In this document: positions 418-58,681 of the stretch, piece by piece
Layout: the number at the start of each line of letters is the position of its first letter
How positions within the stretch are numbered: the stretch's first letter is position 1
Assembly: GCA_046331385.1 (NCBI GenBank)
Contig: JAXLQW010000001.1
Span: 497,596-561,595 of the forward strand
From: Thermoanaerobaculia bacterium
Lineage (GTDB): Bacteria > Acidobacteriota > Thermoanaerobaculia > Multivoradales > JAGPDF01
Direction of reading: 5' to 3'
Length of the DNA stretch: 64,000 nt
Program-made: the position numbers and the translations under genes
Notes under the pieces: model-generated
Told to the model about the DNA's origin: nothing
The model's input: only the letters and a program-made list of their open reading frames with translations
Database searches by the model: none

Positions 418-447
418 CCCCCGCCGCCGAAGCAAGAGGAAAGAGCG

Positions 448-600
448 ATCACCTGGAAGCGAAAATCGAAAAGCTTCTGGTTAGGAGCGTGGGCTTCTCC
501 CGCGCCCTCGTGAACTGGCGAGCGGCTCGACTGGGCGAGGCCGGGAGTGCTGGCGTCTTTTCCCTTAGCCGAGCCTCTTTCTTTCTTCTTCTTTTCTCTC
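448..600. repeat. One copy of a dispersed ~140-bp intergenic repeat family, here between convergent genes
   Basis: The segment ggttaggagcgtgggc...cgccctcgtgaactggcg...ctgggcgaggc...ttttcccttagccgagcc recurs, 70-85% identical, at 7100-7400, 29090-29470 and partially at 58616-58660. Confidence 0.6.
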
Positions 601-678
601 GGTTCTCGGATCTGCGTGTCGCGGCGCGGTTGCCGCGAGGCGTGCGGGTCGAGCGGTCGGGTTGCGCCTGCGGCGCCG

Positions 679-6945: not shown

Positions 6946-7099
6946 GCAGACCTCCTTCTCGAGTCCTACCAGGAGCCACGTACCGCTTGAATCTCGATTC
7001 GCCAACGAGGGTACGCCCCAAGCTCCGAACCGTCAAGGCGGCCACGGCAGGACGGCGCCACCTTGCCTGCCTCCTTCTTCCAGGAAGGCGCCAGGTCGC

Positions 7100-7400
7100 A
7101 AGACTCACCCAAAGGCGAAAAGCGTTCGGCTAGGAGCGTGGGCTGGGCAACGCCCTCGTGAACTGGCGGCTGGGTGGCCTGGGCGCCGGACTCACAGCCA
7201 GTGTCCTTTTCCCTAGCCGAGCCTTCCCTTGCAGAGCGGCTGCAGGTCGAACGACTCACCCAAAGGCGAACAGCGTTCGGTTAGGAGCGTGGGCTGGGCG
7301 GCGCCCTCGTGCACTGGCCGAGAGGTCGGCTGGGCGCCGCTCTCACAGCCAGCATCCATTTCCCTGGCCGAGCCTTTCTTCGCAGGATGTGGCGCAGCCT
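7100..7400. repeat. Two tandem copies of the ~140-bp intergenic repeat family
   Basis: caaaggcgaa[a/c]agcgttcgg[c/t]taggagcgtgggctgggc..cgccctcgtg[a/c]actgg...ttccct[a/g]gccgagcc occurs twice here. It is homologous to 448-600 and 29090-29470. Confidence 0.6.
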
Positions 7401-10678: not shown

Positions 10679-10756
10679 CGGCCCCATCGTCTAGCCCGGT
10701 CCAGGACATCGCCCTTTCAAGGCGCAAACACGGGTTCGAATCCCGTTGGGGCTACC
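10679..10756 (+). tRNA. tRNA-Glu (anticodon TTC)
   Basis: The tcgtctag D-arm and the anticodon loop ctttcaa flanked by tcgcc/ggcgc give anticodon TTC. T-arm acggg-ttcgaat-cccgt. Acceptor ggcccca/tggggct. CCA is encoded. Boundaries are ±2 nt. Confidence 0.8.
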
Positions 10757-11085
10757 AATCCTCGCTTCGCTCGCTCGACACCTCGGCCGGGATCCGGTCC
10801 TGCCTGGGCCTGAACGGCCCGGCAGGTGGCGAATCCCGTTGGGGCTACCAATCCTCGCTTCGCTCGCTCGACACCTCGGCCGGGATCCGGTCCTGCCCGG
10901 GCCTGAACGTCCCGGCAGGAGGCGAATCCCGTTGGGGCTACCAAACCTCGCTTCGCTCGCTCGACACCTCGGCCGGGATCCGGTCCTGCCTGGGCCTGAA
11001 CGGCCCGGCAGGCGGCGAATCCCGTTGGGGCTACCAAACCTCGCTGCGCTCGGGACCAACTCGGCGGGATAAGGCGTCGCTGGGA
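10757..11085 (+). repeat. Tandem array of ~93-bp units, each reiterating the last ~22 nt of tRNA-Glu (gcgaatcccgttggggctacca) plus a ~72-nt spacer with a 12-bp hairpin; three pseudo-copies follow the genuine tRNA 3' end
   Basis: gcgaatcccgttggggctacca recurs at about 10829, 10922 and 11015. The spacer is atcctcgcttcgctcgctcgacacctcggccgggatccggtcctgcctgggcctgaacggcccggcagg. The last unit has a divergent tail, ...ctcgctgcgctcgggaccaactcggcggg. Confidence 0.8.
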
Positions 11086-11472
11086 TGAACGGGGCCTCTG
11101 CACACGCACAGGCCGCGTCGGCAGTGGCGATGCGAGCGCCGCGAGGATCGTCGTTTCGACGCTCCCGAGTGGCGCGCTGCGTCGCCCGCAACCTAACCGT
11201 TGCCGGCGCGTATCAGCCGCCTAAGCTCACCTCATGCGGCACCTCCGAGTACTCAAGCCAGGCAAACTTCGTAACGAGGCGCGCAAGCCCTCTCGCGGAT
11301 TCGTCGAAGCGTCGATGCGGACGGTTCGACCCTTGGACGCGAAACTCCATCCGGCGCTCGATCGGGCCCAGCAGCGTTCGGTCGAAGGACAAGTGGCTTG
11401 CCTGGACGAAAACCGACGGACCGCCCCGAGCCGCGCCAAGCGTGTCGACCGCAGCCCGCACGGAGGGAGACG

Positions 11473-13539
11473 ATGACGATCAGCCGACGAGCCTTTCTCA
11501 AAGCTGCAGCAGCCATCGGTGCTTCGCTCGCATGGGTCGGACCGGCGCGAGGTTCGCGGGTCCACTGGCACGAGCGGCGCGATCTCTATCCTCAAGGGGT
11601 CGCCTCGGGCGATCCCGATCCGAGGAGCGTCATCCTGTGGACGAGGCGTCCGTTTGCCCAGGGCACGCGCGAGCTGCTCACCGTCGAGGTCGCCGAGGAC
11701 GAGGGCTTCCACCGGGTCGTTGCGCACGCCAAGGCCCCGGTCTCCCTCGCCGCGGACTGGACCGCGCGCGTGCTCATCGGCGGACTCGAGCCGGCACGCA
11801 CTTACTGGTATCGCTTCACCGACAGCGACGGCAACGGCAGCCGGGTCGGCCGCACGATCACCGCGCCGTTGCCCGAAGATCCCCGCGCGGTGAACTTCGC
11901 CTTCGTCAGCTGCCAGGACGTCAACGAAGGCAAGCTCAACGGCTATCGCCGGATGATCTACGAAGACGAGCGGGCGCCTGTCGCCGAGCAGCTCGGCTTT
12001 GTGTTGCACCTGGGCGATTTCATCTACGAGGTCGTCGAGTATCCCGACGAGGTCAAGACACGCTACGACCGCACGATCTACGAGGTCGCACGCCTTCCGG
12101 ACAGCCACAAGGTCGGCAACTTCCACATCCCGCTGACCGTCGAGGGCTACCGCGCGATCTACAAAGGCTATCTCGTCGATCCCGACCTCCAGGACGCGCG
12201 CGCCCGCTGGCCGTTCGTCTGCATCTGGGACAACCACGAGTTCTCCTGGCAGGGTTGGCAGAGCACCGTCAAGGCAGGGAAGTTCGAGCAACCCGCCCCG
12301 AGCATCAAGATCGCGGCGAATCAGGCCTGGTTCGAATACCTCCCCGCGCGCGTCGCGCCGCCGAGCGGGTCGCTCGACCAGTTCGGTCCGCCCGCCGTGA
12401 AGGACGGAGTTCCCATCCAGGAGCTCGACGACAGCGGTCTGGGGCTGGAGCCGAACAACCTGACGGCGATCCACAGCCTCAAGGCCTACCGGACGCTGCG
12501 CTATGGCCGGAACCTGGATCTGATCGTCACCGACCAGCACAGCTACCGCAGCGCGGATTGCTTCAGCGATCCGTCGCTGGGGAATCTCGGCGGCGACGAG
12601 TTCATCTCCATGTTTCCCGAGTCTCTGATGAAGGTCCTCGATGGCGGGCGCGCCGCGAACGGGGGCCATCCTCCGGCGGAGATCCGCTTCAACGACGCGC
12701 ACGTCCCCAATCCGCAACGCAACGCGCCGCCGCAGACGATCCTCGGGGCGGAGCAGAAGGCGTGGTTCAAGGAGAGGCTCCGGAGCTCGACGGCTTCGTG
12801 GAAGATCTGGGCCAACTCCCAGGGCACGCTCGACCAGCGCGCCGACCCGCAGAACCTGCCCGCGGGTCTCACCAAGGAACCCTGGCCCGCAGACGGCGGG
12901 TACGCAGCCATGAGCGGCGGCGACTACGGCAGCGCATACATGGAGCGCGCCGAGATCTACCAGCTCGTGCGCGATTCGCAGGTGTCGGGCTTCGCCATCG
13001 TCTCGGGCGACCTCCACAGCTTCTGGGCCGGCTATGCGGCCGCCGAGCTTCCACCCGGCAAGTTCGACCCCGTCGGCCTGAGCTTCGTCGGCGCCTCGCT
13101 GACCAGCCCGGGCGCCATGGAAGCGCAGGAGCACAATCTGCCGAAGGACATTCCGCTCCGGTCGCTGTTTCTCGCCGACAAGCCGTCGGGGCCACCGGAC
13201 TGGACCCACAACATGCTGCTCCGGCACGGCGTTCGCTCCTGTCTCGAGTACGCCAAGAGCTTCGATCTCGCGCGCGCCCGAGCGCTCTCCAACCCGGATC
13301 TCGCGCCGCACCTCGAGTTCGTGGATCTCGGAGGGCACGGGTACGCGAAGGTCCGGCTGTCGGCCGACGAGATGCGCACCGAGTTCGTCTGCATTCCGCG
13401 CCCGATTGCGCGCAGCGAACGACCGGACGGCGGGCCCATTCGGTATCGGGTCGAGCTCACTGCCGCACTCTGGAAGAGCGGAGAGCGCCCCCGGCTCAAG
13501 ACCTCGGTCCTCGAAGGCGACGTCGGGCTGTCGATCTGA
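11473..13539 (+). CDS. phoD: Tat-secreted PhoD-like phosphatase/phosphodiesterase (alkaline phosphatase D family)
   Basis: Twin-arginine signal MTISRRAFLKAAAAIGASLA. PhoD motifs are present: FVSCQD, HLGDFIYE, WDNHEF. Start trimmed to the ATG at 11473, preceded by a ggaggga RBS. Confidence 0.8.
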   Translation: MTISRRAFLKAAAAIGASLAWVGPARGSRVHWHERRDLYPQGVASGDPDPRSVILWTRRPFAQGTRELLTVEVAEDEGFHRVVAHAKAPVSLAADWTARVLIGGLEPARTYWYRFTDSDGNGSRVGRTITAPLPEDPRAVNFAFVSCQDVNEGKLNGYRRMIYEDERAPVAEQLGFVLHLGDFIYEVVEYPDEVKTRYDRTIYEVARLPDSHKVGNFHIPLTVEGYRAIYKGYLVDPDLQDARARWPFVCIWDNHEFSWQGWQSTVKAGKFEQPAPSIKIAANQAWFEYLPARVAPPSGSLDQFGPPAVKDGVPIQELDDSGLGLEPNNLTAIHSLKAYRTLRYGRNLDLIVTDQHSYRSADCFSDPSLGNLGGDEFISMFPESLMKVLDGGRAANGGHPPAEIRFNDAHVPNPQRNAPPQTILGAEQKAWFKERLRSSTASWKIWANSQGTLDQRADPQNLPAGLTKEPWPADGGYAAMSGGDYGSAYMERAEIYQLVRDSQVSGFAIVSGDLHSFWAGYAAAELPPGKFDPVGLSFVGASLTSPGAMEAQEHNLPKDIPLRSLFLADKPSGPPDWTHNMLLRHGVRSCLEYAKSFDLARARALSNPDLAPHLEFVDLGGHGYAKVRLSADEMRTEFVCIPRPIARSERPDGGPIRYRVELTAALWKSGERPRLKTSVLEGDVGLSI

Positions 13540-13547
13540 CCGGCCCG

Positions 13548-13645
13548 CGATCTGGGCCTGAACGGCCCGGCCGGCGGCGAATCGCGTTGGGGTTACCGCC
13601 GCTTTCTGCGCTCGATTCCAACTCGACGGGTTTCGGGATCATTCT
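13548..13645 (+). repeat. Degenerate copy of the tRNA-Glu 3'-end repeat unit, forming the right-hand direct repeat around the phoD segment
   Basis: ctgggcctgaacggcccggccggcggcgaatcgcgttggggttaccgccgctttctgcgctcgattccaactcgacggg is ~85% identical to the last unit of the 10757-11085 array. Confidence 0.65.
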
Positions 13646-25548: not shown

Positions 25549-27153
25549 TTAGCCCGGATCCACGGATAAGGCGGGGATGTTGAAGTAGCGGAAGCGCCCC
25601 AAGCCTGATAAGACGGCGCTGTTCAAGGTCGTCGTCTTCAGGAGAGGAGCACTTCCGAGGTGAAGATCCCAAAGCGAGTCCGTGGCGTCAAGTTCCGATC
25701 GTCGGGCGCGGCGACGACCTCCTTCGCGGGCCTGCGTTTCGTGGTCGAGCTGGCGTCGAAGCTGCGAGTGATCGAGCGGCTCCGCGTCGTTTCGGTGAAG
25801 AAACGCCGTCGAGGAATTCCAGTCGAGGACTTCGTGATGAGCCTGGCGTCGAGCTTTCTGGTCGGCGGCGACAGCCTGAGCGATCTGTCTGTGCTGCGAG
25901 AAGAGACCGTGACGCGCGAGTTGTGCTTCGATCTCGAGGTGCCGGCGCCGACGACGGCGGGCGAGCGTCTGCGCAGCTTCTCGTTGGGTCACCTGCGACA
26001 GCTCGATGGAGCCCAGCGTGAGACCTGCCGCGAAATTCTCGAGCGGACGAGTGGGAGCGAAGCGCTGACGCTGGACGTGGACAGCTCGATCATCGAGGTC
26101 TACGGCGACCAGAAGCAGGGTGCGCGTTTCGGCTACAGCGGCGTGCGTGGGCTGCATCCGCTGCTGGCCTTCGCTCACGAGGAGCGGCTTCTGTTGGGGG
26201 CGCGGCTACGCGCGGGCAACCGAGCCTCGTCGGACGGCGTCGTCCCGTTTCTCGAAGACGTCCTCACGGCGATCCCGGCTCGCCGTCGGGTGCGCCTGCG
26301 GATGGACGCCGGTTTCTACGGCAAGTCGGTGGAAGGATTCGCGACCGAGCGTGCCCTGGGCTTCAGCATTTCGGCGAGGCTGACGAAGCGGCTGCGCGCC
26401 GAGATCGAAGCGCTTCCCGAAGGGGCGTGGCGCAGCTATCCGTGGGAAGAAGAGGCCGAGTACGCCGAGCTGCGTTACCGGCCCACGGGCTGGTCGAGCG
26501 ACTACCGCCTCCTCGTCAAGCGGACGCCCTGGTTCGACCAGGAGCAGCGCCTGCTCGACGAGCACTTCTTCACGCCGGTCATCACCAACCTGCCGGGCGC
26601 CGCGAGCAGCCTGATTCGCTATCACCTGGCACGCGGTGGGGCCGAGAACTACATCGAGGAGTTCAAGTCCGGCATCGGCGCCTCGCATCTGCCCTCACGC
26701 TGCTTTCACGCCAACTGGGCCTGGCTGTTGATCGCCGCTCTCGCTTACAACCTCGCGCAAGCCTTCAAGCTCCTGCTGCTCCCCGCCGCCGAGCAGGCGC
26801 AGCAGATCAAGAAGCTGCGCCTGCACTGGCTGTGCGTCGCCGCCCGCTTCATCCGCACCGGCAGACGCTTCGTCCTGGCGCTCGCTCGCGGACCGGACAC
26901 GGCCAACGCCTTCGAGCGCCTGCAACAACAGCTCACCACGCTCTGATTCCGCAACCAAGGGAAGCGGCATCCCGGCTGCGCGCCAGGAGTGTCTCCCGCG
27001 GACCCCTCCATCCTCCAACTCACGCTCGACCACCGCCTTCGACCGCGAACACCAGCCCTACCTGAGCCAGAAATCCGCCGCGCGGGTGGCCGCTGCAGCA
27101 ATCTGAGCCCGTCCGCTCCACTTCAGCCGCCTTACCCGTGGATCCGGGCTTAG
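25549..27153 (+). mobile_element. IS1380-family insertion sequence (~1.6 kb) with 24-27-bp imperfect terminal inverted repeats
   Basis: IRL ttagcccggatccacggataaggcgg at 25549-25574. IRR ccgccttacccgtggatccgggcttagg at 27127-27153, whose reverse complement matches IRL at 24 of 26 positions. One transposase ORF lies between them. No clean target-site duplication could be identified. Confidence 0.75.
25660..26946 (+). CDS. IS1380-family DDE transposase
   Basis: 428 aa. GTG start preceded by ggagaggag. Features characteristic of IS4/IS1380-type transposases: ...VDSSIIEVYGDQKQGARFGYSGVRGLHPL... and C-terminal YHLARGGAENYIEEFKSGIGASHLPSRCFHANWAWLLIAALAYNL. Confidence 0.7.
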   Translation: MKIPKRVRGVKFRSSGAATTSFAGLRFVVELASKLRVIERLRVVSVKKRRRGIPVEDFVMSLASSFLVGGDSLSDLSVLREETVTRELCFDLEVPAPTTAGERLRSFSLGHLRQLDGAQRETCREILERTSGSEALTLDVDSSIIEVYGDQKQGARFGYSGVRGLHPLLAFAHEERLLLGARLRAGNRASSDGVVPFLEDVLTAIPARRRVRLRMDAGFYGKSVEGFATERALGFSISARLTKRLRAEIEALPEGAWRSYPWEEEAEYAELRYRPTGWSSDYRLLVKRTPWFDQEQRLLDEHFFTPVITNLPGAASSLIRYHLARGGAENYIEEFKSGIGASHLPSRCFHANWAWLLIAALAYNLAQAFKLLLLPAAEQAQQIKKLRLHWLCVAARFIRTGRRFVLALARGPDTANAFERLQQQLTTL

Positions 27154-29002: not shown

Positions 29003-29089
29003 CCCGCACGCGGATCGGCGGGAACGCGAGGGGATGGGTCGCCACCGACCCATCCCCTTTTCCATCCTGAACTAGCCGCCCGCCCAGCT

Positions 29090-29470
29090 CGGCGAAGCTG
29101 TCGCTGCCGGAGTCGTTTTCCTCGACCGAGCTTTTCTTCGCAGGATGGCGATGGGTCGAACTCCGAAGGCAAAGGCTCTCGCCTGGGAGTGTGGGCCTTT
29201 TCACCGCCCTCGTGAACCGGCGCCGGGCTCGACTGGGCGAGGCTGTCGAAGCGGCGTCTTTCTTCCTTAACCGGGCTTTTCTTCGCAAGATGGCGTGGGA
29301 TCGAACTGCGTGGGCAAAGGCTCTCGCCTAGGAGCATGGGCCTCTTGACCGCCCTCGTGAACACGCGGCGGGCGCGGCTGGGCGAGGCTGTCGAAGCGGC
29401 GTCCTTCGTCCTTAACCGAGCGTTTCTTCGCAGGATGTTGGCGAGTCGAGCGCGTTGGCCTTCGCCTCGA
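29090..29470. repeat. Three tandem copies of the ~140-bp intergenic repeat family, between convergent glnA and the DinB-like gene
   Basis: Unit: ...ctgggcgaggctgtcgaagcggcgtctttcttccttaaccgggcttttcttcgcaagatggcg...gggcaaaggctctcgcctaggagcatgggcc..cgccctcgtgaac.. Homologous to 448-600 and 7100-7400. Confidence 0.65.
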
Positions 29471-39161: not shown

Positions 39162-42100
39162 ATGACCAGGCGGACGGGGAACCGGTTGACCGCGCTCGAT
39201 TTGGCCTTGCGCAGCCTCGCCTGGACCGCGTTCTCCGTCCTGATCGCCTCGCCCCTGCTCGGTTCGGGCGAATCGGTCCCGTTCAACGCAGTCCACGTCC
39301 CTCCCGGCGCGACGGTCACCATCACCTTCGACGTCGACGTCGACGATCCGCTCGGCGTCTGCGCCACCGCGATCTCGAATCAGGGCAGCGTCACTTCGAC
39401 CAACCACGCGAGCGTCCTCACCGACGACACGGCCGTGGGCGGCGGCGCCGACCCGACGGTCACGGGGCTCGACGCGGTCGACCTCGCGATCACCAAGACC
39501 GACGGCGTCGCGAGCGAGACCCCCGGCACCGCGATCACGTACACCATCACCGCCTCGAACGCCGGACCCTCGGGCGCGACCGGAGCTCTCGTCGCCGACA
39601 CCTTTCCGGCGACGGTCACCGGCGTGACCTGGACCTGCGTCGGCGCCGGCGGCGGCACCTGCGCGGCGAGCGGCTCGGGGAACCTCAACCAGTCGGTCAA
39701 CCTGCCGGCCGGCGGCTCGGTCACCTTCACCGTTTCGGGATCGATCTCGCCGAGCGCCACCGGCAGCCTGACCAACACCGCCACGGTGACCAAGCCGGCC
39801 GCGGTGCTCGAGTGCAACCTGGCGAACAACTCGGCGACCGACACCGACACCCTGAGCCCGCAGGCCGACGTCTCGATCACCAAGACCGACGGCGTCGCGA
39901 GCGTCGACGCCGGGAGCAACACGACTTATACGATCACCGCTTCGAACGCCGGCCCGAGCGACGCGCCGAACGCCGGGGTGGCCGACACGTTCCCGGCGGA
40001 GATCACCGGCGTCGCTTGGACCTGTGTCGGCGCGGGTGGCGGTACCTGCGCCGCGAGCGGCAGCGGCAACCTCAGCCAGAGCGTGAGCCTCCCGGCCGGC
40101 GGCTCGGTCACCTTCACCGCCGTCGCCTCGGTGTCGGGCTCCGCGACCGGATCGCTGGTCAACACCGCGACGGTCTCCTCGGGCGCCGGCGTGACCGACC
40201 CGGCCCCCGGCAACAACAGCGCCACCGACACCGACACGATCAACCCGGTGGCGGATCTCGCGATCTCGAAGAGCGACGGCACGACGACGGTGGTCCCCGG
40301 GCTCGCGACCGCGTACACGATCGTGGCCTCGAACGCCGGCCCGGCGACGGCGACCGGCGCGACGGTGGCGGACACCTTCCCGGCGGCCTGCGCGTCGGTG
40401 ACCTGGACCTGCGTCGGCGCGGGTGGCGGTACCTGCACGGCGAGCGGGTCGGGCAACATTTCCGACAGCGTCAATCTCCCCTCGGGCGGCAGCGCGACCT
40501 ACACCGCGGTCTGCACCACGGCCGCCAACGCGAGCGGCAGCCTCTCGAACACCGCCACCATCTCCGGCGGCGGCGTCAGCGACACGAACGCCGGCAACAA
40601 CTCGGCGACCGACACCGACACCTTCCTGCCGCTCGACTTCGGCGACGCCCCGGACGCCTCGATCGGCGCGCCCTGGGCCTATCCGACGAAGCTGGCGAAC
40701 GATGGCGCGCGCCACGGCGTCAACGGCCCGATCGCGCTGCGCTTCGGCGCCCAGATCGACACCGAGACCGACGGCCAGCCGACGGCGAACGCCGACGGCG
40801 ACGACGCGAACCCGGCGCTCGCGCCTGACGACGAGGACGGCATCACGCTGCCGACCTTCCTCGTCGCCTGCGAGAGCGCGAGCGTCACCGTCAACGCCTC
40901 GGCGATCGCCAAGCTCGATGCTTTCGTCGACTTCAACCGCGACGGCGACTTCGCCGACGCGGGCGAGAAGATCTTCAGCAGCCAGGCGCTGGTCGCGGGC
41001 GCGAACCCGCTCAACTTCACCGTTCCCTGCGGCGCCACCCCGACCGCGCTGACCTTCGCCCGCTTCCGCATCTCGACCGCCGGCGGCCTGTCGTACGACG
41101 GCGTCGCCGCCGACGGCGAGGTCGAGGACTACCCGGCCGCCGTTCGCGGTCTCGACTTCGGCGATGCCCCCGTCGTCTACGCGACGCTCTTCGCCGACAA
41201 CGGCGCCCGCCACGTCGTCACCGGTAGCGGCCCGGTGCTCGGCGCGGTCGCTCCGGACACCGAGGCGGACGGGCAGCCGACCGCCGGCGCCACCGGCGAC
41301 GACGCCAACGGGGTCGACGACGAGGACGGCGTCAGCTTCACCTCGCCGCTGCTGCGCGGGCAGAACGCCACGGTCACCGTTACCGCCTCGGCGGCCGGAG
41401 TGCTCAACGCCTGGCTCGACTTCAACGGCGACGGCAACTGGACCACCGCCGGCGATCAGATCTTCACCAACCAGGCGCTCGCCGCCGGGGCCAACCTACT
41501 CACCTTCGCGGTGCCGGCGACCGCGACGACCAACCTATCGACGGTGTCGCGTTTCCGGATCGCCACCGCGCCCGGCCTGTCGTTCAACGGCTTGGCGCAG
41601 AACGGCGAGGTCGAGGACCATGCGGTGGCGACGGCGGCCGAGGCCGACCTCTCGATCGCCAAGAGCGACGGTTCCGCGACCGAGGTTCCGGGCACGACGG
41701 TGACCTACACGATCGTCGCTGCGAACGCCGGGCCGGACGCCGCCACCGGCGTCACCGTCGCCGACACGTTCCCGGGGATCCTCTCCGGCTGCACCTGGAC
41801 GAGCATCGCCGCGGGCGGCGCCACCGGCAACGCCGCTGCGGGGAGCGGAAATATCTCCAACGGCGGCATCAACCTGCCGAGCGGCGCCTCGGTCACCTAC
41901 ACCGTGACCTGCACGATCGCCGCGAGCGCCACCGGGACTCTGACGAACACCGCCACGAGCTCGGTACCAGTCGGTCTCAACGACCCGGTCCCGGGCAACA
42001 ACAGCGCCACCGACGCCGACACGCTGACCCCGCAGACCGATCTCGCGGTCACCAAGACCGACGGCTCGGCGACGGAGGTTCCGGGCACCTCGGTGAGCTA

Positions 42101-44159
42101 CACCATCGTCGCTTCGAATGCCGGCCCGTCCGACGCCGTCGCGGCTTCGGTCGCCGATTCCTTCCCGGCGACGATCACCGGCGTCGCCTGGACCTGCGTC
42201 GGCGCCGGGGGCGGGACCTGCCCGGCGAGCGGCAGCGGCAACATCTTCGCCAGCGTGAACTTGCCGGTGGGCGGTTCGGCGACCTTCACCGCCACCGGCA
42301 CGATCTCGGCCGCGGCGACCGGGAGCCTCGCGAACACCGCCACCGTCGCCGCGGGCGCCGGGGCGACCGATCCGACGCCCGGCAACAACAGCGCCACCGA
42401 CACCGACACCCTGACGCCGCAGGTCGACCTCGCGATCAGCAAGAGCGACGGCTCGGCGACGGAGGTTCCGGGGACGCCGGTCACCTACTCGATCGCGGTC
42501 GGCAATGCCGGCCCCTCGAACGCCGTTGCCGCGGTGGTCGCCGACACCTTCCCGGCGGCGATCTCCGGGGTCGCCTGGACCTGCGCCGGCGCCGGCGGTG
42601 GCACTTGCCCGGCCGCGGGCTCCGGCAACCTCAACACCGCGGTCAACGTACCGGTCGGCGGCACGGTGACCTTCACCGCCACCGGCACGATCGCCTCCTC
42701 GGCCACGGGAACCCTGTCGAACACCGCGACGGTCACCGCCGCCGGCGGCACGACCGACACCAACGCGGGCAACAACAGCGCGACCGACACCGACACGCTG
42801 ACGCCGCAGGCGGACCTGCAGATCACCAAGGACGACAGCGCCGACCCGCCGCCGGCGGGGGAGAATCTGGTCTACACCCTCACGGTGCACAACTTCGGTC
42901 CGTCCGACGCCGCCGGCGTCGCGGTGAGCGATCCGCTGCCCGCCGCCGTGACCTACGTCTCCGATACCTGCGGCGGCACCAACACGCCGCCGTGGAGCTG
43001 GACGATCGGCGCCCTGGCGAGCGGCGCGACGGTGTCGTGCGACATCACGGTGTCGATCAACCCGGCGCCGCCGATCTCGATCTCCAACACCGCCTCGGTC
43101 ACCGCGACGACGCCGGACCTGGTCGCGGGGAACAACTCGGATACCGAGACCACGCAGCTCGACGCCATCCCGCCGACGGTCGACAACGTCGATTCGCAGG
43201 CCGGCACCGGCGACGGCACCCTCGCCGACTGCGAGACCGCCACCGCGCCGATCCACCACCTGCTCCTCGCCTTCAGCGAGGCGATGGCGAATCCGCCGGG
43301 CGACGGGGGAGCGAACGACGTCACCAACCCGGCCAACTACCTGCTGGTCAGCGCGGGGGCCGACTTCGACTTCTCGACCACGGCCTGCGGCGGCGCAGCG
43401 GGCGACGACCTCGCCATCCCGGTCGTCGGGGTGGCGTACAACGGCGGGACGGACACCGCGAGCCTCGACCTCGGCGGGGCGCTCGCCCCGGCGCAGTACC
43501 GACTCTTCGCTTGCGACACGCTGACCGATCTCGCGGGCAACCCGCTCGACGGCGACCTCGACACCACGGCGGGGGGAGATTTCCTCCGCCGCTTCCGCGC
43601 CGACTCCGACGACCTGTTCGCCAACGCGCACTTCGACTGCAGCCTGGCGGGTTGGACGGCGAGCGCGCCGGCCCCGGGCGAGGTCACCTGGACGGGAGCC
43701 GAGGACGCCGACGGCGCCGACGACTCGGGCGCCGTGCGCGTCACCAACCTCGCCCCCGGCGTCGACACGAGCTTCGCGCTCGCCCAGTGCTACGACCTGC
43801 CGGCGGCGGTGCCCTACCAGGTGCGGGCACGGCTGCGGCTCGACGCCGCGCCAGGGGTGCTGGTCGGCCTGACGCGCGCCTGCACCTTCTACAATGGCCC
43901 GGCCTGCGCCGGCGGATCGACGACCCAGTCGGACACCGTTCTGCTCGGCAGCACCGGCGGGAGCTGGATTCCGCTGGTCAAGACGGTCACGCCACCGGTC
44001 TCGGCGCTCTCGGCACTGTGCACCTTCCGTTGGGACACGCCGGTCGCAGCGGGTTTCGATTCCTTCCTCGACGCCGCCTTCTTCGGCGCGACGGGGCAGC
44101 TGTTCTCGGACGGCTTCGAGACCGGCGACACTTCACGTTGGTCGGCGACCGTGCCTTGA
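39162..44159 (+). CDS. Giant secreted adhesin-like protein with ~7 DUF11 repeats and GEVED-type motifs, ending in the shared C-terminal tag LFSDGFETGDTSRWSATVP
   Basis: The true start is probably the ATG at 39162 (MTRRTGNRLTALDLALRSLAWTAFSVLIASPLLGSG), which has a ggagagg RBS. Upstream, the ORF is antisense to gspE and EamA. Repeats follow the pattern L[AS]I[TS]K[TS]DG...TYTI.ASNAGPS.A....ADTFPA..TGV.WTC. Interspersed DFGDAPD...NDGARH...GEVED[YH] segments are present. Confidence 0.8.
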   Translation: MTRRTGNRLTALDLALRSLAWTAFSVLIASPLLGSGESVPFNAVHVPPGATVTITFDVDVDDPLGVCATAISNQGSVTSTNHASVLTDDTAVGGGADPTVTGLDAVDLAITKTDGVASETPGTAITYTITASNAGPSGATGALVADTFPATVTGVTWTCVGAGGGTCAASGSGNLNQSVNLPAGGSVTFTVSGSISPSATGSLTNTATVTKPAAVLECNLANNSATDTDTLSPQADVSITKTDGVASVDAGSNTTYTITASNAGPSDAPNAGVADTFPAEITGVAWTCVGAGGGTCAASGSGNLSQSVSLPAGGSVTFTAVASVSGSATGSLVNTATVSSGAGVTDPAPGNNSATDTDTINPVADLAISKSDGTTTVVPGLATAYTIVASNAGPATATGATVADTFPAACASVTWTCVGAGGGTCTASGSGNISDSVNLPSGGSATYTAVCTTAANASGSLSNTATISGGGVSDTNAGNNSATDTDTFLPLDFGDAPDASIGAPWAYPTKLANDGARHGVNGPIALRFGAQIDTETDGQPTANADGDDANPALAPDDEDGITLPTFLVACESASVTVNASAIAKLDAFVDFNRDGDFADAGEKIFSSQALVAGANPLNFTVPCGATPTALTFARFRISTAGGLSYDGVAADGEVEDYPAAVRGLDFGDAPVVYATLFADNGARHVVTGSGPVLGAVAPDTEADGQPTAGATGDDANGVDDEDGVSFTSPLLRGQNATVTVTASAAGVLNAWLDFNGDGNWTTAGDQIFTNQALAAGANLLTFAVPATATTNLSTVSRFRIATAPGLSFNGLAQNGEVEDHAVATAAEADLSIAKSDGSATEVPGTTVTYTIVAANAGPDAATGVTVADTFPGILSGCTWTSIAAGGATGNAAAGSGNISNGGINLPSGASVTYTVTCTIAASATGTLTNTATSSVPVGLNDPVPGNNSATDADTLTPQTDLAVTKTDGSATEVPGTSVSYTIVASNAGPSDAVAASVADSFPATITGVAWTCVGAGGGTCPASGSGNIFASVNLPVGGSATFTATGTISAAATGSLANTATVAAGAGATDPTPGNNSATDTDTLTPQVDLAISKSDGSATEVPGTPVTYSIAVGNAGPSNAVAAVVADTFPAAISGVAWTCAGAGGGTCPAAGSGNLNTAVNVPVGGTVTFTATGTIASSATGTLSNTATVTAAGGTTDTNAGNNSATDTDTLTPQADLQITKDDSADPPPAGENLVYTLTVHNFGPSDAAGVAVSDPLPAAVTYVSDTCGGTNTPPWSWTIGALASGATVSCDITVSINPAPPISISNTASVTATTPDLVAGNNSDTETTQLDAIPPTVDNVDSQAGTGDGTLADCETATAPIHHLLLAFSEAMANPPGDGGANDVTNPANYLLVSAGADFDFSTTACGGAAGDDLAIPVVGVAYNGGTDTASLDLGGALAPAQYRLFACDTLTDLAGNPLDGDLDTTAGGDFLRRFRADSDDLFANAHFDCSLAGWTASAPAPGEVTWTGAEDADGADDSGAVRVTNLAPGVDTSFALAQCYDLPAAVPYQVRARLRLDAAPGVLVGLTRACTFYNGPACAGGSTTQSDTVLLGSTGGSWIPLVKTVTPPVSALSALCTFRWDTPVAAGFDSFLDAAFFGATGQLFSDGFETGDTSRWSATVP

Positions 44160-45102: not shown

Positions 45103-48100
45103 TCAGCCCGCGTTTGCCGAAGCGGTTCCGGAGGTGGTTCTCGCGCGCGGCGGTCGGGCTCCTCGCCACGCTCGTCTGGGGCCAGGCGCCGGCTCGGGCC
45201 CAGGTGATCGTCGACAGCTTCACCACCGTCCAGTCGACTCTCAGCGCACCGCCCGACGCGAGCTCGACCGCCACCGGCGGCGCCGACATCGTCGGCACCA
45301 AGCGCGGCATCGTGCAGCACGAAGTCGCGGGCGCCGGGCCGTCGACGGTCGCGGTCGCCGCCGGCCTGTTGACCCTGACGGTACCCAACACGACCCCCGA
45401 TTCGCGCGCCGAAGCGCGGCTCTCCTGGGACGGCGACAACAGCCCGGCGGTGCTCAATCCGACCGGCCTCGGAGCCGTCAACCTGACCGCCGGCAACTCC
45501 GGCGGATTTCGCATCCGCGTCGCTTCGGCGGGCGCCGGAGCCGAGCTCGAATTCGCCGTCTACTCGACCGCCGCCAACTTCTCGCGCGCCGCCCGCCTGC
45601 TGCCGGCGATCGCCTCGTCGACCGACGTCTTCCTGTCGTTTTCGGAGTTCCGCACGGCCGGCGGCACGGGGGCCAACTTCGCCAGCGTCGGCGCCATCGA
45701 GCTCACCGTGCGCGGCAAGGAGATCGCCGTCGTCCTCGACGAGATCGTCACCAGCGCGCCGATCCTGGCGGCGACCAAGGTGGACGCGCAGACGGTCGAC
45801 GTCGACGGCGACACGCGGGTCGATCCCGGCGACCGGGTGCGCTACACGGTAACCATCACCAACACCGGAAACGACGCGCTGGCGGTCGACCTGACGGACG
45901 CGGTCGACGCCAACACCACGCTGGTCGCGGGCTCGGTGCACTCGACGCCGGTGGCGCGCAACGACCAGTACGGCTGGTTTGGGAACGTGACCTTCGCCGC
46001 CGACGGGAGCGCCGGCCGGCCCGGCCTGCTCGCCAACGACGAGGACGGCGACGGCGACACGCTCACCGTGACCTCGGTCTCGCCGACCAGCTCCCAGGGC
46101 GGCACGGTCACCCTCGACGATGCCGCGACCGGCAAGTTCACCTACGCTCCGCCGGCGGGCTTCGCCGGCGTCGATTCGTTCGGCTACACGCTGCAGGACG
46201 ACGACGGCAACAGCAAGTCGGCGACCGCCTACGTCCAGCTCAAGGGAATCGTCTGGTTCGTCGACAATGCCTGCTCGGTCGGCTGCGGTCAGGGGACCTT
46301 CTCCTCGCCGTTCACCACCCTGCCGCAGGCCGAGACCGCCTCGGGCGCCAACGACATCGTTTACGTCCGTACGGGCTCGGGGGCCTACGACACCGGTGCG
46401 GCGAACGGCTTTTCCATGGACGCCGATGAGCAGCTGCTGGGCGAAGGCGTCGCCCTGGTGCTCGACGGCACGACGATCGTGCCGGTCGGCGCGCCGCCGC
46501 TGCTCACCAACGAGGTGGCGACGGTGGGTCGGGGCGTCACCCTGGCCGCCAGCGGCACCGACACCCTCCGCGGCCTGACGATCGGCAACACCGCCGGCGC
46601 GAAGATCTTCGGCAACACCTTCGGCACCCTGGCGACCGACACCCTCACCCTGAACGGCACGGGCCAGGCGCTCGACCTGACCAACGGGGTGCTGGCGACG
46701 ACGCTCGTCGGTCTCGCGTCGTCGACCAGCGCCACGACCGGGATCTCGCTCGCGACAGTCTCGGGTTCACTGACGGTGACCGGCTCGACGGGAATCACCA
46801 ATCCCGCCGGTACCGGTATCAGCATCGCGACTTCGACCGCCGCGCTGAGCTTCGCGTCGACGAGCATCGACAAGAGCGCGAGCGCCGGAACCGGGTTGTC
46901 GATCACCGGCAGCAGCGGCACGACCGGCTTCTCGAACCTGGCGGTCACGACCAGCGCCGGTACCGGCGTTCTCGTCTCCGGCAGCCCGCTCTCCGTGGGC
47001 GGCTCGGCGAGCACGATCGCCGCCACCGGCGGCCCGGCCCTCGACCTCACCACCGTGAACCTCGGCGCCGGCGCGACCTTCGCCACTGCGAGCTCGACCG
47101 GCAGCGCCGGCAAGGGCATGAACCTCGACACCCTGACCGGCGCCCTGACCATGAACGGCGGCTCGATCAGCACGCCAACCGGCACCGCGTTCGACCTCAA
47201 CGCCGGCTCCGCCAACGTGACCTACGCCGGCTCGGTCAGCAACACGGCGAACGCGCTCCTGGTCGAGATCACCGGCCGCAGCGGCGGCACGGTGGCGCTC
47301 TCGGGCGCGCTCTCGAGCACCGGCTCGGGCAACGGCATCAGCGTGGCCAACAACACCGGCGGCACGATCAACTTCAGCAACGCCTCGAAGACGCTGACCA
47401 CCGGCGCGGATCCGGCGGTGACGCTCGCCAGCAACACCGGCGCGACGATCAACTTCAGCGGCGGCGGGCTGGCGATCACCACCACCTCGGGCGCCGGCTT
47501 CACCGCCACCGGCGGAGCGACGGCGATCACGGTCCAGGGCACCGCCAACACGATCAGCTCGACGACCGGCACGGCGCTCAACGTCGCGAATTCGACGATC
47601 GGCGCGAGCGGCTTGACCTTCCAGAGCGTCTCGGCGAACGGCGCTTCGCGCGGCATCGTGCTGAACACGACCGGTGCCTCCGGCGGGCTGACCGTGACGG
47701 GCAACGGCGGCACGTGCACCAGCGCGGATACTTCCGGCTGTTCCGGCGGGACGATTCAGGCGTCGACGGGCGCGGATGACTCGAGCCTCACGCCGGCCGG
47801 GACCGGGATCGTGCTCAACAGCACGGCGAGCGTCTCGCTCACGCGTATGTTCATCCACGACCACAGCAACTACGGAATTCGCGGCACCTCGGTGGCCGGG
47901 TTCACGCTCGATCAGAGCGTACTCGGTGGCACCAACGGCGGCCCGCTCCCGGCCAGCGCCGGTTCGCCTTTCCACGACGGCTCCATCAAGTTCGACAACC
48001 TGACCGGCTCGGCGACCATCTCGAATTCGGCGATCAGCGGCGGTTTCTCGAACAACGTGCGCGTCGACAACACCACGGGCACCCTCAACCGCATCACCTT

Positions 48101-49097: not shown

Positions 49098-49598
49098 ATG
49101 GCCGAACCATTCCTGAGTGAGATTCGACTCATGAGCTTCGGCTTCGCGCCGAAGGGCTGGGCGTTGTGCAATGGCCAGCTCCTGCCGATCAATCAGAACC
49201 AGGGCCTTTTCTCTCTCCTCGGGACGACTTTCGGAGGGGACGGAAGAGTCAACTTCGCGCTGCCCAACCTCCAGGGTCGAGTGCCGATTCACGTCGGGTC
49301 CGGGCACACTCTCGGGGAGCGCGGCGGGGAGCAAGCTCATACGCTGTCGATTTCCGAGCTGCCTACCCATACCCATGCGGTCGCCGTCTCCTCGACGGCG
49401 ACCGGCGGTAACGTGAATCCGAGCGGGCGGTTCCTGGGCGGCGGGAACAACGCCTATCACGCGCCAGCGAGCCTGACGACCATGAATCCGGCGAGCGTGG
49501 CGAATGTCGGCGGGAGCCAGGCACATCTCAACATGCAGCCGTTCCTGGCGCTCAATTTCTCCATTGCCCTCCAGGGGATCTTCCCTTCTCCCAATTAG
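49098..49598 (+). CDS. Phage tail collar domain protein (T4 gp36-like; MdpB-type), paralog 1 of 3
   Basis: N-terminus MAEPFLSEIRLMSFGFAPKGWALCNGQLLPINQNQGLFSLLGTTFGGDG..NFALPNLQGR matches the tail-collar domain signature. Confidence 0.8.
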   Translation: MAEPFLSEIRLMSFGFAPKGWALCNGQLLPINQNQGLFSLLGTTFGGDGRVNFALPNLQGRVPIHVGSGHTLGERGGEQAHTLSISELPTHTHAVAVSSTATGGNVNPSGRFLGGGNNAYHAPASLTTMNPASVANVGGSQAHLNMQPFLALNFSIALQGIFPSPN

Positions 49599-49607
49599 GA
49601 GAGAACG

Positions 49608-50111
49608 ATGGCCCAGCCCTACGTCGGGGAAATCCGCATGTTCGCCGGGAACTTCGCTCCCGCCGGATGGATGTTCTGCGAAGGCCAGCTGCTACCGATT
49701 TCCGAGAACGAGACGCTCTTTCAGCTGATCGGAACGACCTATGGCGGCGATGGAGAGAGCACTTTCGCGCTGCCTGACCTGCGCGGCCGGGTACCGATTC
49801 ACTTCGGGAACGGATTCATCCTGGCCGAAACCGGCGGAGTCGAACAGATCACTCTCACGGTGCAGCAGATTGCGGCGCATTCGCACTCGCTCCTGGCCGC
49901 GGGCACGACCGGAGATCAGGTGAGTCCGGCCAACAACCTGCCTGCGAACTCGTTCAATGTCACGCCTTACATCAATGACGTACCGAACGGCAACATGAAC
50001 GCTGCTGCGATCACGGCGGTCGGGGGCAGCCAGCCACACGACAATTTCCAGCCGTACCTCTGCGTCGACTTCATCATCTCGTTGTTCGGCATCTTTCCTT
50101 CGCCGACCTGA
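49608..50111 (+). CDS. Phage tail collar domain protein, paralog 2 of 3
   Basis: N-terminus MAQPYVGEIRMFAGNFAPAGWMFCEGQLLPISENETLFQLIGTTYGGDGESTFALPDLRGR. It begins 10 nt after paralog 1. Confidence 0.8.
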   Translation: MAQPYVGEIRMFAGNFAPAGWMFCEGQLLPISENETLFQLIGTTYGGDGESTFALPDLRGRVPIHFGNGFILAETGGVEQITLTVQQIAAHSHSLLAAGTTGDQVSPANNLPANSFNVTPYINDVPNGNMNAAAITAVGGSQPHDNFQPYLCVDFIISLFGIFPSPT

Positions 50112-50120
50112 GAGGGCGCC

Positions 50121-50642
50121 ATGGCCGATCCCTTCGTCGCCGAGATCCGCATCTTCCCGTTCAACTTCGCGCCCCGAGGCTGGGCGTGGTGCGACGGCCA
50201 GTTGATGCCGCTCTCCCAGAACACCGCTCTGTTCTCCCTGCTTGGAACGACCTACGGTGGGGACGGAAAGAGCACCTTCGGATTGCCCGATCTCCAGGGG
50301 CGGGCGCCGATGCACCCCGGTCAGGGCCCCGGCCTGTCGTTGCACGATCTCGGCGAGATTTCCGGCAGCGAGACGATCACCCTGCTCGAGAGCGAGATTC
50401 CAACCCACTCCCACCAGATGCGAGCCGACGTGGTGGATCTCGCCGACACGAACGTCGCGAGCCCCAACGCGAGCTTCGCTCTGTCGGCGGGTGGAACGTT
50501 GTACCAGGCGGCGTCGAACGCCACGGCTTCCGACCAGGCCCTCGCCCCCGCCGGCGGCGACCAGCCGCACAACAACATGCAGCCGTACCTGACGTTCTAC
50601 TTCAACATCGCGCTGCAGGGAGTCTTCCCGCCGCGGACCTGA
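50121..50642 (+). CDS. Phage tail collar domain protein, paralog 3 of 3
   Basis: N-terminus MADPFVAEIRIFPFNFAPRGWAWCDGQLMPLSQNTALFSLLGTTYGGDGKSTFGLPDLQGR. Confidence 0.8.
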   Translation: MADPFVAEIRIFPFNFAPRGWAWCDGQLMPLSQNTALFSLLGTTYGGDGKSTFGLPDLQGRAPMHPGQGPGLSLHDLGEISGSETITLLESEIPTHSHQMRADVVDLADTNVASPNASFALSAGGTLYQAASNATASDQALAPAGGDQPHNNMQPYLTFYFNIALQGVFPPRT

Positions 50643-50657
50643 GGAGGGCAACCGGTC

Positions 50658-57334: not shown

Positions 57335-58615
57335 ATGGCCAACCCCAGGATCCAAGCGCCCAAGGGGACACGCGACCTGCTGCCGCCCGAGACGGCGGTC
57401 TGGGCGGCGGTCGAGAGCGCGGCGCGCGAGGTCTTCGCGCTCTACGGCTACCGCGAGATCCGCACTCCGATCTTCGAGGAGACCGAGCTGTTCGTGCGCG
57501 GCGTCGGCGAATCGACCGACATCGTGGGCAAGGAGATGTACACCTTCGAGGACAAAGGCGGACGCTCGCTGACGCTACGGCCGGAGAACACCGCTCCCGT
57601 CTGCCGCGCCTACCTCGAGCACGGCATGCAGAGCCTGCCGCAGCCGGTGCGCCTCTTCTACGTCGGGCCTCAGTTCCGGGCCGAGAAGCCGCAGAAGGGT
57701 CGCTATCGCCAGTTCTCGCAGATCGGCGCCGAGCTGCTGGGCGGGCGGGGAGCCGAGTCCGACGCCGAGATCCTGCTGCTGCTGGTCGCGTTCCTGCGCC
57801 GGCTCGGCTTCGCGGATCTCAAAGTCCTGCTGAATACGGTCGGTGACGAGGCTTCGCGGGCCGCCTATCGGCGGGCGCTGGTCGAGTACTTCGAGATGCG
57901 AAAAGCTCACCTGGGGGAAGACAGCTTGCGCAGGTTGGCGACGAATCCGCTGCGGATCCTGGACAGCAAGGACCCGCGCGAGCAGGAGGTGCTCGCGGGC
58001 GCTCCGCGGCTCGAGGCTTCGCTGACGGCGGAGAGCCGCGAGCAGTTCGCGGCGGTGCGCGCGGCGCTGGAGGCCTTCCGGGTGGCCTACGAAGTCTCGC
58101 CGCGCCTGGTGCGCGGTCTCGACTACTACACCCACACGGTGTTCGAGATCGTCTCGGAGGGCCTGGGGGCGCAGAACGCGATCTGCGGCGGCGGTGCCTA
58201 CGAGAAACTGGTCGAGGAGCTGGGCGGCCCGGCGACTTACGGCGTCGGTTTCGCGATCGGCGAGGATCGTCTGATCGACGTCCTGCCGGCGGCGACGCGC
58301 ACCCGGCTGGCGGGCGTCGGGCCGGCGGTCGTCGCGCCCATGGGCAAGCTACCGGACGACGCGGCCGGCGTCTCGCCGCTGCTCGAGCTGCTGCAGGAGC
58401 TGCGCGCAGAGGGGATTCCGGCGATCCAGGGGCCGGCGAAAAAGGAGCGCCTCTTTGCTTTCGCCGAGTCGATCCAGGCCCCGGTGATCGTCTTCCTCGG
58501 CGAGACCGAGCTGCAACAGAAGACGCTCGCGCTGCGCGACCTGCGCACCCGGAACCAGGAGTCGATCCCGCGCGCCCAAGCCGCCGACAGACTGAGATCT
58601 TTCTTCCCCAAGTGA
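57335..58615 (+). CDS. hisS: Histidine--tRNA ligase
   Basis: Start at the ATG at 57335, overlapping the upstream stop (TGAGATG). N-terminus MANPRIQAPKGTRDLLP...YREIRTPIFEETELF. Class II motifs are present. Confidence 0.9.
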   Translation: MANPRIQAPKGTRDLLPPETAVWAAVESAAREVFALYGYREIRTPIFEETELFVRGVGESTDIVGKEMYTFEDKGGRSLTLRPENTAPVCRAYLEHGMQSLPQPVRLFYVGPQFRAEKPQKGRYRQFSQIGAELLGGRGAESDAEILLLLVAFLRRLGFADLKVLLNTVGDEASRAAYRRALVEYFEMRKAHLGEDSLRRLATNPLRILDSKDPREQEVLAGAPRLEASLTAESREQFAAVRAALEAFRVAYEVSPRLVRGLDYYTHTVFEIVSEGLGAQNAICGGGAYEKLVEELGGPATYGVGFAIGEDRLIDVLPAATRTRLAGVGPAVVAPMGKLPDDAAGVSPLLELLQELRAEGIPAIQGPAKKERLFAFAESIQAPVIVFLGETELQQKTLALRDLRTRNQESIPRAQAADRLRSFFPK

Positions 58616-58681
58616 GCTTTTGCTTTTTCCTAACCGAGCTTTTCTTTTTCTTCTTCTGATTTGAGAGACGTGGGAGCGCAG

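Follow-up and report, generated by a model that had tools for sequence, protein, structure and literature searches.

Several families of intergenic repeats have been described in bacteria, and they differ in size, structure and presumed origin. Of 613 prokaryotic species, 97% contained species-specific repeats longer than 85 bp, of which only one in four was tied to mobile elements (PMC3372372). The MIRU-VNTR loci consist of short, lineage-restricted tandem direct repeats in variable numbers at many intergenic loci in a high-GC genome, and the MIRU units themselves are 40 to 100 bp long, contain internal inverted repeats rich in GC, have ends that imperfectly resemble TIRs, and are located in sense within operons, where their small ORFs overlap the flanking genes (PMC3184786). 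In the pneumococcal repeat SPRITE, a terminator-like motif is combined with a bias to convergent 3' ends (PMC3184786). REPs are palindromes of 20 to 40 bp, often GTAG- or CGTC-tagged, which alternate in orientation in BIMEs (PMC3733652, PMC2817692). MITEs, such as Correia/NEMIS, RUP and ERIC, are defined by TIRs and target-site duplications, and the BOX elements of S. pneumoniae are composed of boxA, boxB and boxC modules and are thought to be mobilised by an IS. The Sib/Ibs and Ldr/Rdl type I toxin-antitoxin repeats of E. coli occur as single, double and triple tandem intergenic copies, and comprise a conserved ORF for a hydrophobic toxin together with an antisense RNA, promoters and terminators.

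Here, we have studied a repeat of about 150 bp that is present at four intergenic sites in a stretch of 64,000 nucleotides (the window) from an uncultured Thermoanaerobaculia bacterium. The homologs of its GlnA protein likewise assign the window to the Thermoanaerobaculia in the Acidobacteriota. We estimate the probability at roughly 0.5 that it is a non-coding, lineage-restricted interspersed tandem repeat of the minisatellite type, and neither a gene nor a classical transposon. The repeat is previously uncatalogued and is best grouped with those intergenic repeats that are termed "species-specific" (PMC3372372). It does not show the defining features of MITEs, REPs, MIRUs, type I toxin-antitoxin repeats or any Rfam family.

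By analogy, the MIRU-type minisatellites and SPRITE may be considered its nearest functional counterparts. The likeness to MIRUs is one of description, in that tandem direct repeats restricted to a lineage are found at several intergenic loci of a high-GC genome with a copy number that depends on the locus (1, 2 or about 2.5), and that GC-rich inverted repeats within the unit and imperfectly TIR-like ends are common to both, but the units are 145 to 152 bp long, are mostly located at convergent 3' ends, are antisense to the neighboring genes at one locus and have no conserved reading frame. As in BOX, we observed a modular, non-coding intergenic sequence with tandem iteration and possible transcription, although in BOX it is an internal module that is iterated, whereas here whole units follow each other head to tail, and no IS that could mobilize the repeat was found in the window. 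Similarly, the repeat resembles REPs and BIMEs in being a GC-rich extragenic repeat between gene ends, but it is not a palindrome, has five times the length of a REP and is repeated directly. The tandem intergenic multiplicity is also reminiscent of Sib/Ibs and Ldr/Rdl, but the conserved toxin ORF, promoters and other components of these systems were not found here.

Repeat units and their flanking genes

A search of both strands of the window with an nhmmer profile of the copies identified five full units of 145 to 152 nt, with E-values of 1e-41 to 1e-37, and one half unit (Table 1), with no further match below an E-value of 0.4. TRF reported two arrays, one at 7092-7376 with a period of 151, 1.9 copies and 85% matches, and the other at 29091-29437 with a period of 145, 2.4 copies and 84% matches, and a repeat search paired positions 469-541 both with 29171-29243 and with 29316-29388. 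The intergenic repeat family is real, and is located at the four loci where a first-pass annotation of the sequence had placed it. The copy numbers given in that annotation were confirmed for the single unit at locus A, the 2 units at locus B and the partial copy at locus D, whereas the array downstream of glnA (locus C) was found to contain 2 full units and a half unit, about 2.5 copies, rather than 3. The arrays at 7084-7388 and 29065-29436 were found without a single base change in the Logan assemblies of the sequencing runs SRR26348421 and SRR26348416, and since these independent assemblies of two runs reproduce both arrays exactly, the arrays are not assembly artefacts.

Table 1. Repeat units, fragments and the adjacent glnA terminator in the window
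Feature	Position	Strand	Evidence
Locus A, single unit	431..607	+	nhmmer 441-585, E 1.1e-37
Locus B, unit B1	7068..7234	+	nhmmer 7084-7234, E 1.4e-37; TRF 7092-7376
Locus B, unit B2	7235..7395	+	nhmmer 7238-7388, E 5.2e-37; 82% identical to B1
glnA intrinsic terminator (not repeat)	29029..29063	+	13-bp perfect stem, 4-nt loop, TTTTCC tail
Locus C, partial unit C1 (3' ~55%)	29065..29143	+	nhmmer 29065-29146, E 8.5e-12
Locus C, full unit C2 (145 nt)	29144..29288	+	nhmmer 29144-29291, E 7.5e-41; TRF period 145
Locus C, full unit C3	29289..29436	+	nhmmer E 2.9e-38; 86% identical to C2
Locus C, trailing ~25 nt	29437..29460	+	weakly like the 5' start of a further unit, read from alignments
Locus D, isolated 3' motif and T/C-rich tail	58626..58662	+	22-nt pattern match

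The Pfam assignments of the flanking genes (WS/DGAT, ABC1/UbiB, GlnA, DinB_2, HisS and AspS) agreed with the identities proposed earlier. Two of the loci are located between convergent gene ends and one between tandem genes, while the fragment is located in an intercistronic spacer. The unit at locus A begins 14 nt past the stop codon of the WS/DGAT gene (417) and ends about 72 nt short of the stop codon of the convergent ABC1/UbiB gene (679), with an expanded T/C-rich tail at 572-607 as its 3' end. At locus B, the first unit is preceded by the remnant of a unit junction (CCTCCTTCTTCCAGGAAGG) and is located upstream of a minus-strand gene for an FN3 protein (start at about 6945), and the second unit ends about 22 nt from the stop codon of a minus-strand amidohydrolase gene (7417). 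The element is therefore antisense to both of these genes. The sequence of locus B was identical in the Logan contig L041. The description in the first-pass annotation is to be corrected for locus B, which separates two minus-strand genes.

The locus C array is located directly after the intrinsic terminator of glnA, which is also conserved in the relative L037 described below, and because glnA has this terminator of its own the array is not simply the glnA terminator. The partial unit C1 corresponds to profile positions 69-150 and scored 39.7 bits with a sequence-only model. In C3, the core blocks were located at 29329-29341 (TAGGAGCATGGGC), 29350-29362 (CGCCCTCGTGAAC) and 29378-29384 (CTGGGCG), followed by the 3' motif at 29408-29429. 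The trailing segment (GTTGGCGAGTCGAGCG) is weakly similar to the 5' start of a unit (GGCGATGGGTCGAAC), and the array ends 38 to 61 nt before the stop codon of the convergent DinB_2 gene (29498).

Locus D was missed by the profile (E 0.6) because the fragment is too short, and was recognized by the 22-nt 3' motif TTCCYTARCCGAGCYTTTCTTC at 58626-58647, which was present with 2 mismatches and for which shuffled sequences gave 0.00 matches. The fragment has a pyrimidine tract at 58637-58662 and is located within the 68-nt spacer between the hisS stop codon (58615) and the aspS ATG codon (58684), in sense to both genes. All seven copies at the four loci are on the + strand. The GC skew over the window is weak, and the orientation of the copies relative to the replication strand was not readable from it.

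Lineage distribution and divergence of the units

The core pattern GGAGYRTGGGC-N7-10-CGCCCTCGTG was scanned for in 185,579 GTDB species genomes, in JGI metagenome contigs and in IMG/VR, collections which evidently do not include the source genome. No true copy was found in them, the matches being single, restricted to the searched pattern and of no further likeness to the unit. Furthermore, blastn searches of plasmid and phage collections gave nothing similar, and exact-protein look-ups for genes of the window led to nothing but re-assemblies of this DNA.

The repeat was present in a sister genome represented by the JGI contig L037, in which the GlnA protein is 97% identical to that of the window. 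This contig contains glnA, the terminator, a half unit, two full units and the DinB_2 gene in this order, which is the same 2.5 copies as in the window, and the array was identical in the two sequencing runs. There was thus no copy-number polymorphism in the comparisons made, which were between the window and L037 and between the two runs. We also searched a total of about 110 kb from four Thermoanaerobaculia genomes that are less closely related, in which the GlnA protein is about 87% identical or a homolog of the FN3 protein is present, and neither the profile nor the CM searches identified any copy in them; nor was there a comparable tandem repeat. Since the array is present in the sister genome and copies were missing from the four more distant relatives, the family appears to be restricted to a narrow lineage.

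To describe how the units have diverged, we compared their sequences within arrays, between loci and between the two genomes. The two units in L037 were 100% identical to each other, and C2 and C3 showed 86% and B1 and B2 82% identity. The orthologous pairs were 78% (C2 and the first L037 unit) and 74% (C3 and the second L037 unit) identical, and units from different loci 55% to 61%. As a benchmark for the window and its relative, four-fold sites were 88% identical in glnA and 80% identical in DinB_2, and identity was 70% in the spacer located upstream of glnA. The units have been homogenized within arrays while the orthologous units have diverged, which is concerted evolution by unequal exchange or conversion. 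As judged from these alignments, the array changes at about the neutral rate or faster.

The invariant columns were clustered along the unit (longest run 10, P = 0.003; clustering statistic, P = 0.0001), and the conserved blocks were GGAG..TGGGC, CGCCCTCGTG and CTGGGCG. Such a distribution is not expected of pure junk, and part of the unit is therefore constrained or recognized by something. With the conserved blocks, the weak hairpin and the pyrimidine tail, a terminator-like role or a role as RNA is possible.

A minisatellite-type repeat of this kind could have arisen as follows. New tandem copies would be formed by slippage or by unequal recombination between units, and the spread to different spacers would have taken place in the ancestor of the species group, perhaps by mobilization in trans or by illegitimate recombination. 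The copies are located in spacers that tolerate extra DNA, and the family may persist as near-neutral or mildly selfish DNA. An effect on the host, if any, would most likely be on + strand transcripts, to which the unit may add a weak extra terminator or a 3'-end element, similar to SPRITE.

There is almost no experimental genetics for the Thermoanaerobaculia, and a catalogued repeat is mainly of practical use, as a marker for strain typing and as a clean case of concerted evolution in a bacterial minisatellite. If the units make discrete RNAs or terminate transcription, they would represent a regulatory module that is specific to this lineage and has reached many genes.

RNA structure and the small-RNA reading

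Observations that go against a repeat pure and simple are the single orientation at four loci, the clustered conservation, the G-U pairs on the + strand and the pairing at the glnA locus.

The first of the alternatives to a minisatellite-type repeat is that the units are genes of a small regulatory RNA family, or act in cis as a structured RNA, on the + strand, which we consider unlikely, although more probable than the other alternatives. Each unit would then encode an RNA of about 110 nt that ends at the T/C-rich tail and contains two internal hairpins, with a Shine-Dalgarno-like UAGGAG held by the downstream CCUUAACCGAG. The tandem multiplicity of the Qrr, PrrF and Sib families would in that case parallel the unit arrays. 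The arrangement of conserved blocks with variable, loop-like stretches between them is in line with such an RNA, as are the presence of a hairpin with a U-rich tail and the one orientation shared by all copies. The RNAalifold consensus of the + strand consisted of an outer helix of 10 bp, formed by TTCGGTTAGG and CCTTAACCGAG, and of two hairpins, the first of which was GYRTGGGC/GCCCTCGTG. In the GYRUGGGC/GCCCUCGUG hairpin the arms were invariant and the loop of 8 to 9 nt was variable, and about 25% of the pairs in the first helix were G-U pairs, an abundance that favors the + strand since these pairs work only in + strand RNA.

The single-sequence folds of both strands were no more stable than dinucleotide shuffles (z from -2.0 to +0.8), and the RNAalifold covariation term of +0.42 on the + strand and +2.58 on the minus strand gave no support for the structure. 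Column shuffles paired nearly as well as the real alignment (89.9% compared to 91.3% of the cells), and the duplex energies were the same within units as between units. When locus A was held out from the building of the covariance model, it scored 76.2 bits with that model and 75.2 bits with a sequence-only model, so that the structure added only about 1 bit. The structure tests rest on six independent sequences and their power is therefore low. Folding and covariation analysis, which had been proposed along with the small-RNA suggestion in the first-pass annotation, thus gave no support for a conserved fold, with z-values near 0 and nil covariation among the six sequences.

At the gathering threshold of Rfam 15, only two tRNAs passed in the whole window and there was no match to the repeat, permissive Rfam scans of three loci gave only unrelated families with E-values above 0.1, and no relation of the units to tRNA or tmRNA was found. 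A search for promoters of the sigma-70 type identified none in or before the units at three loci. Furthermore, the divergence of the orthologous units at a neutral rate speaks against an RNA gene. Readings of the unit by eye as a sigma-54 (TGGCAC-N5-TTGC) or ECF (GAAC...CGTT) promoter, as a CsrB-like density of CAGGAUG, as a G-quadruplex or as a parS-like site were dropped because the spacing or the conservation failed across copies.

Within the lineage of the glnA locus, pairing between the 5' part of a unit and the CTGGGCGAGGC block is much better than in shuffled sequences (P from 0.003 to 0.06), giving a strong long-range duplex in C2, C3 and L037, and the partner segments used in the window and in L037 are different, which speaks for the small-RNA reading. 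This pairing may reflect either selection for the hairpin or templated mutation in a quasi-palindrome. A more specific proposal would be that the units are independently expressed + strand riboregulators of a new class restricted to one Thermoanaerobaculia lineage, in which the SD-mimic (UAGGAG) is alternately sequestered by two partners that compete for it and the hairpin is selected through "partner switching" between the window and its sister at the glnA locus, but we regard it as improbable and put it forward as a speculation.

Terminator-like, transposon-like and coding features

A functional terminator-like repeat, analogous to SPRITE, would spread into 3' spacers and be kept because the hairpin and pyrimidine tail stop + strand transcription, or insulate it, where genes converge. 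In most units, the 3' half of the + strand can form an imperfect hairpin with GGCTCG/CGAGCC at its base and TTTCTTC after it, and matches to a short hairpin with a T-rich tail were located at 540-554 and 29242-29256. The 3' halves fold at -17 to -25 kcal/mol, and that of locus A, at -25.5 kcal/mol, is followed by UCUUUCUUUCUU. At 3 of the 4 loci (A, C and D) the repeat is located just downstream of a + strand gene and in sense orientation, the tails of the stand-alone copies A and D are the only long intergenic T-rich pyrimidine tracts in the 64 kb, and with no other hairpin between the WS/DGAT stop codon and locus A this unit is the sole candidate terminator for WS/DGAT. Unit A, which starts 14 nt past that stop codon, resembles SPRITE in this respect.

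However, in contrast to SPRITE, the present unit has a terminator motif that is weak and statistically unremarkable, is longer and tandemly arrayed, and is in an unsuitable orientation at one of the loci. Its hairpins are of considerable length and interrupted, their stability does not exceed that of shuffled sequences (z from -1.5 to +0.5), and the U-tracts are broken by C. At locus B there is no + strand gene upstream of the array, at glnA another terminator would be redundant given the strong one before the array, and a two-and-a-half-fold repetition is needless for termination. A function in termination as the main explanation for the family therefore seems rather unlikely.

Slightly less probable still, in our judgment, is that the unit is a non-autonomous MITE-like element mobilized in trans by a transposase elsewhere in the genome, with the tandem arrays as a secondary development. 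It resembles MITEs in its size range (100 to 200 bp), in its dispersal as several intergenic copies and in a possible long-range stem, and insertion by transposition has been argued for in the case of MIRUs, which occur in tandem as well (PMC3184786). All units contain an imperfect inverted repeat, AAAAGC.TCGGTTRGG ... CCTTAACCGAGCTTTT, with the arms about 78 nt apart, and the genome has at least one active-looking IS. The latter, at 25553-27148, encodes a DDE_Tnp_1_4 transposase and has 22-bp TIRs and a 5-bp CTTAG duplication, and L037 represents its empty site.

The structure of the unit is nevertheless not that of a MITE. The sole recurrent inverted repeat (TTCGGTTAGG/CCTTAACCGAG) is 10 bp long, imperfect, about 25% G-T and internal rather than terminal, and on the 5' side the homology between loci continues for about 35 nt beyond it. 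We found neither TIRs nor target-site duplications at loci A, B and C, where the flanks showed no consistent direct repeat, the starts and ends of the arrays fall at differing unit phases, and the units are arranged head to tail in one orientation. The REP or MITE-like nature first suggested for the repeat was thus not borne out, the unit being 145 to 152 nt long and having no dominating palindrome. Parentage by the IS in the window was rejected, since its ends showed no similarity to the unit beyond chance, and the 22-bp TIR occurs in the window only at the IS itself.

Finally, the view of the first-pass annotation that the repeat is a nucleotide element and not a gene was upheld, in that each of the six frames is interrupted or shifted in one copy or more. 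The units do have a conserved AGGAG followed by GTG or ATG, from which a peptide starting with MGLFTALVNRRRARLGEA could be read, and the first approximately 19 codons are alike in A, C2, C3 and L037. That the units are decayed copies of a gene for a small protein, such as a precursor peptide or the toxin of a type I system, is nevertheless very improbable given that the AGGAG and the start codon are only 1 nt apart, that B1 and B2 are frameshifted after 4 codons (the B1 ORF has 7 codons), that the ORFs range from 7 to 605 codons across copies and that a 1-nt indel between the units of the window and those of L037 shifts the frame and alters the C-terminus. The longest + strand peptide, encoded by a 46-aa ORF in C2, had 0 matches in a search of 1.84 billion representative proteins. 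When the six frames were concatenated into one query and compared with 5.8 billion proteins, nothing was returned either, which is a weak result in that a long query may crowd out short ORFs.

In DNA with a GC content of 70%, as in the window, the repeat gives rise to long spurious ORFs and is therefore a source of assembly and annotation errors. The gene callers placed no ORF on the arrays in L041 or L042, and in L037 a single minus-strand gene of 29 aa was called, which overlaps only the last approximately 25 nt of the array.

Pairing partners of the conserved block

The conserved CTGGGCGAGGC block of the repeat, the non-coding intergenic unit of about 150 bp, has a complementary partner both in the window and in L037, the contig of the sister genome that carries the same glnA-DinB array, but the partners are located at differing positions in the unit. 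The partner arm in L037 is 17 nt long and lies close to the 5' end of the unit, and that in the window is 9 nt long and stems from five substitutions in the SD-like segment (the UAGGAG/AGGAG motif in the 5' part of the unit). The other partner of the block in the window was lost by a 6-nt deletion, before the five substitutions.

The left edge of the repeat array at locus C is formed by the textbook intrinsic terminator of glnA, which is kept in the sister genome.

Coordinates of the features, in the window unless L037 is named
Feature	Position	Remarks
Paired arms, L037	11591-11607 / 11676-11692	
Paired arms, window	29323-29331 / 29378-29386	
glnA intrinsic terminator	29029-29063	13-bp perfect stem, 4-nt loop, TTTTCC
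tRNA-Glu	10680-10757	
93-nt tandem unit	10737-11052	3.4 copies, directly after tRNA-Glu
PhoD-like phosphatase gene	11398-13539	
Diverged copy of 93-nt unit	13552-13630	other side of PhoD-like phosphatase gene
Insertion sequence, intact	25553-27148	1596 bp
DDE_Tnp_1_4 transposase of the insertion sequence	25660-26946	
387-nt tandem repeats	39479-40447 and 41637-42830	two blocks
92-nt block	49508-49599, 50021-50112, 50552-50643	three occurrences, ORF 3' end; region about 49100-50642

The hisS terminus near locus D

Immediately upstream of the repeat fragment in the hisS-aspS spacer, the final hisS codons and the stop codon (tctttcttccccaagtgagcttttgc, 58596-58624) were similar by eye to the 3' motif of the repeat at approximately 19 of 26 positions. 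The segment thus has the look of another copy of that motif, less well preserved than the first, and the C-terminus of hisS may overlap an old fragment of the repeat element.

Mobile and tRNA-associated elements

The insertion sequence is bounded by terminal inverted repeats of 22 bp (CCCGGATCCACGGRTAAGGCGG) and a 5-bp target duplication, CTTAG. It is missing from the sister genome, in which the empty site corresponds to L037 9596-9600. It is probably present in multiple copies, since it was recovered as a separate contig of 1598 bp in the Logan assembly.

Every 93-nt unit of the tandem array starts with the last 21 nt of tRNA-Glu (cgaatcccgttggggctacca). The array, together with the diverged copy beyond the phosphatase gene, looks like serial att-type duplications of the 3' end of the tRNA, which possibly mark an integrated segment. 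A 97-nt "tRNA-Thr" was also predicted by ARAGORN within a coding region (47135-47231, minus strand); it was not confirmed by Rfam and is probably a false positive.

Repeats within apparent coding regions

The 387-nt tandem repeats were 70% to 78% identical, and both blocks are apparently located inside the gene for a very large repetitive surface protein. The occurrences of the 92-nt block were spaced by 513 to 531 nt. This region may consist of three tandem paralogous ORFs, given that the last ORF (50121-50642) contains a phage Tail Collar domain.
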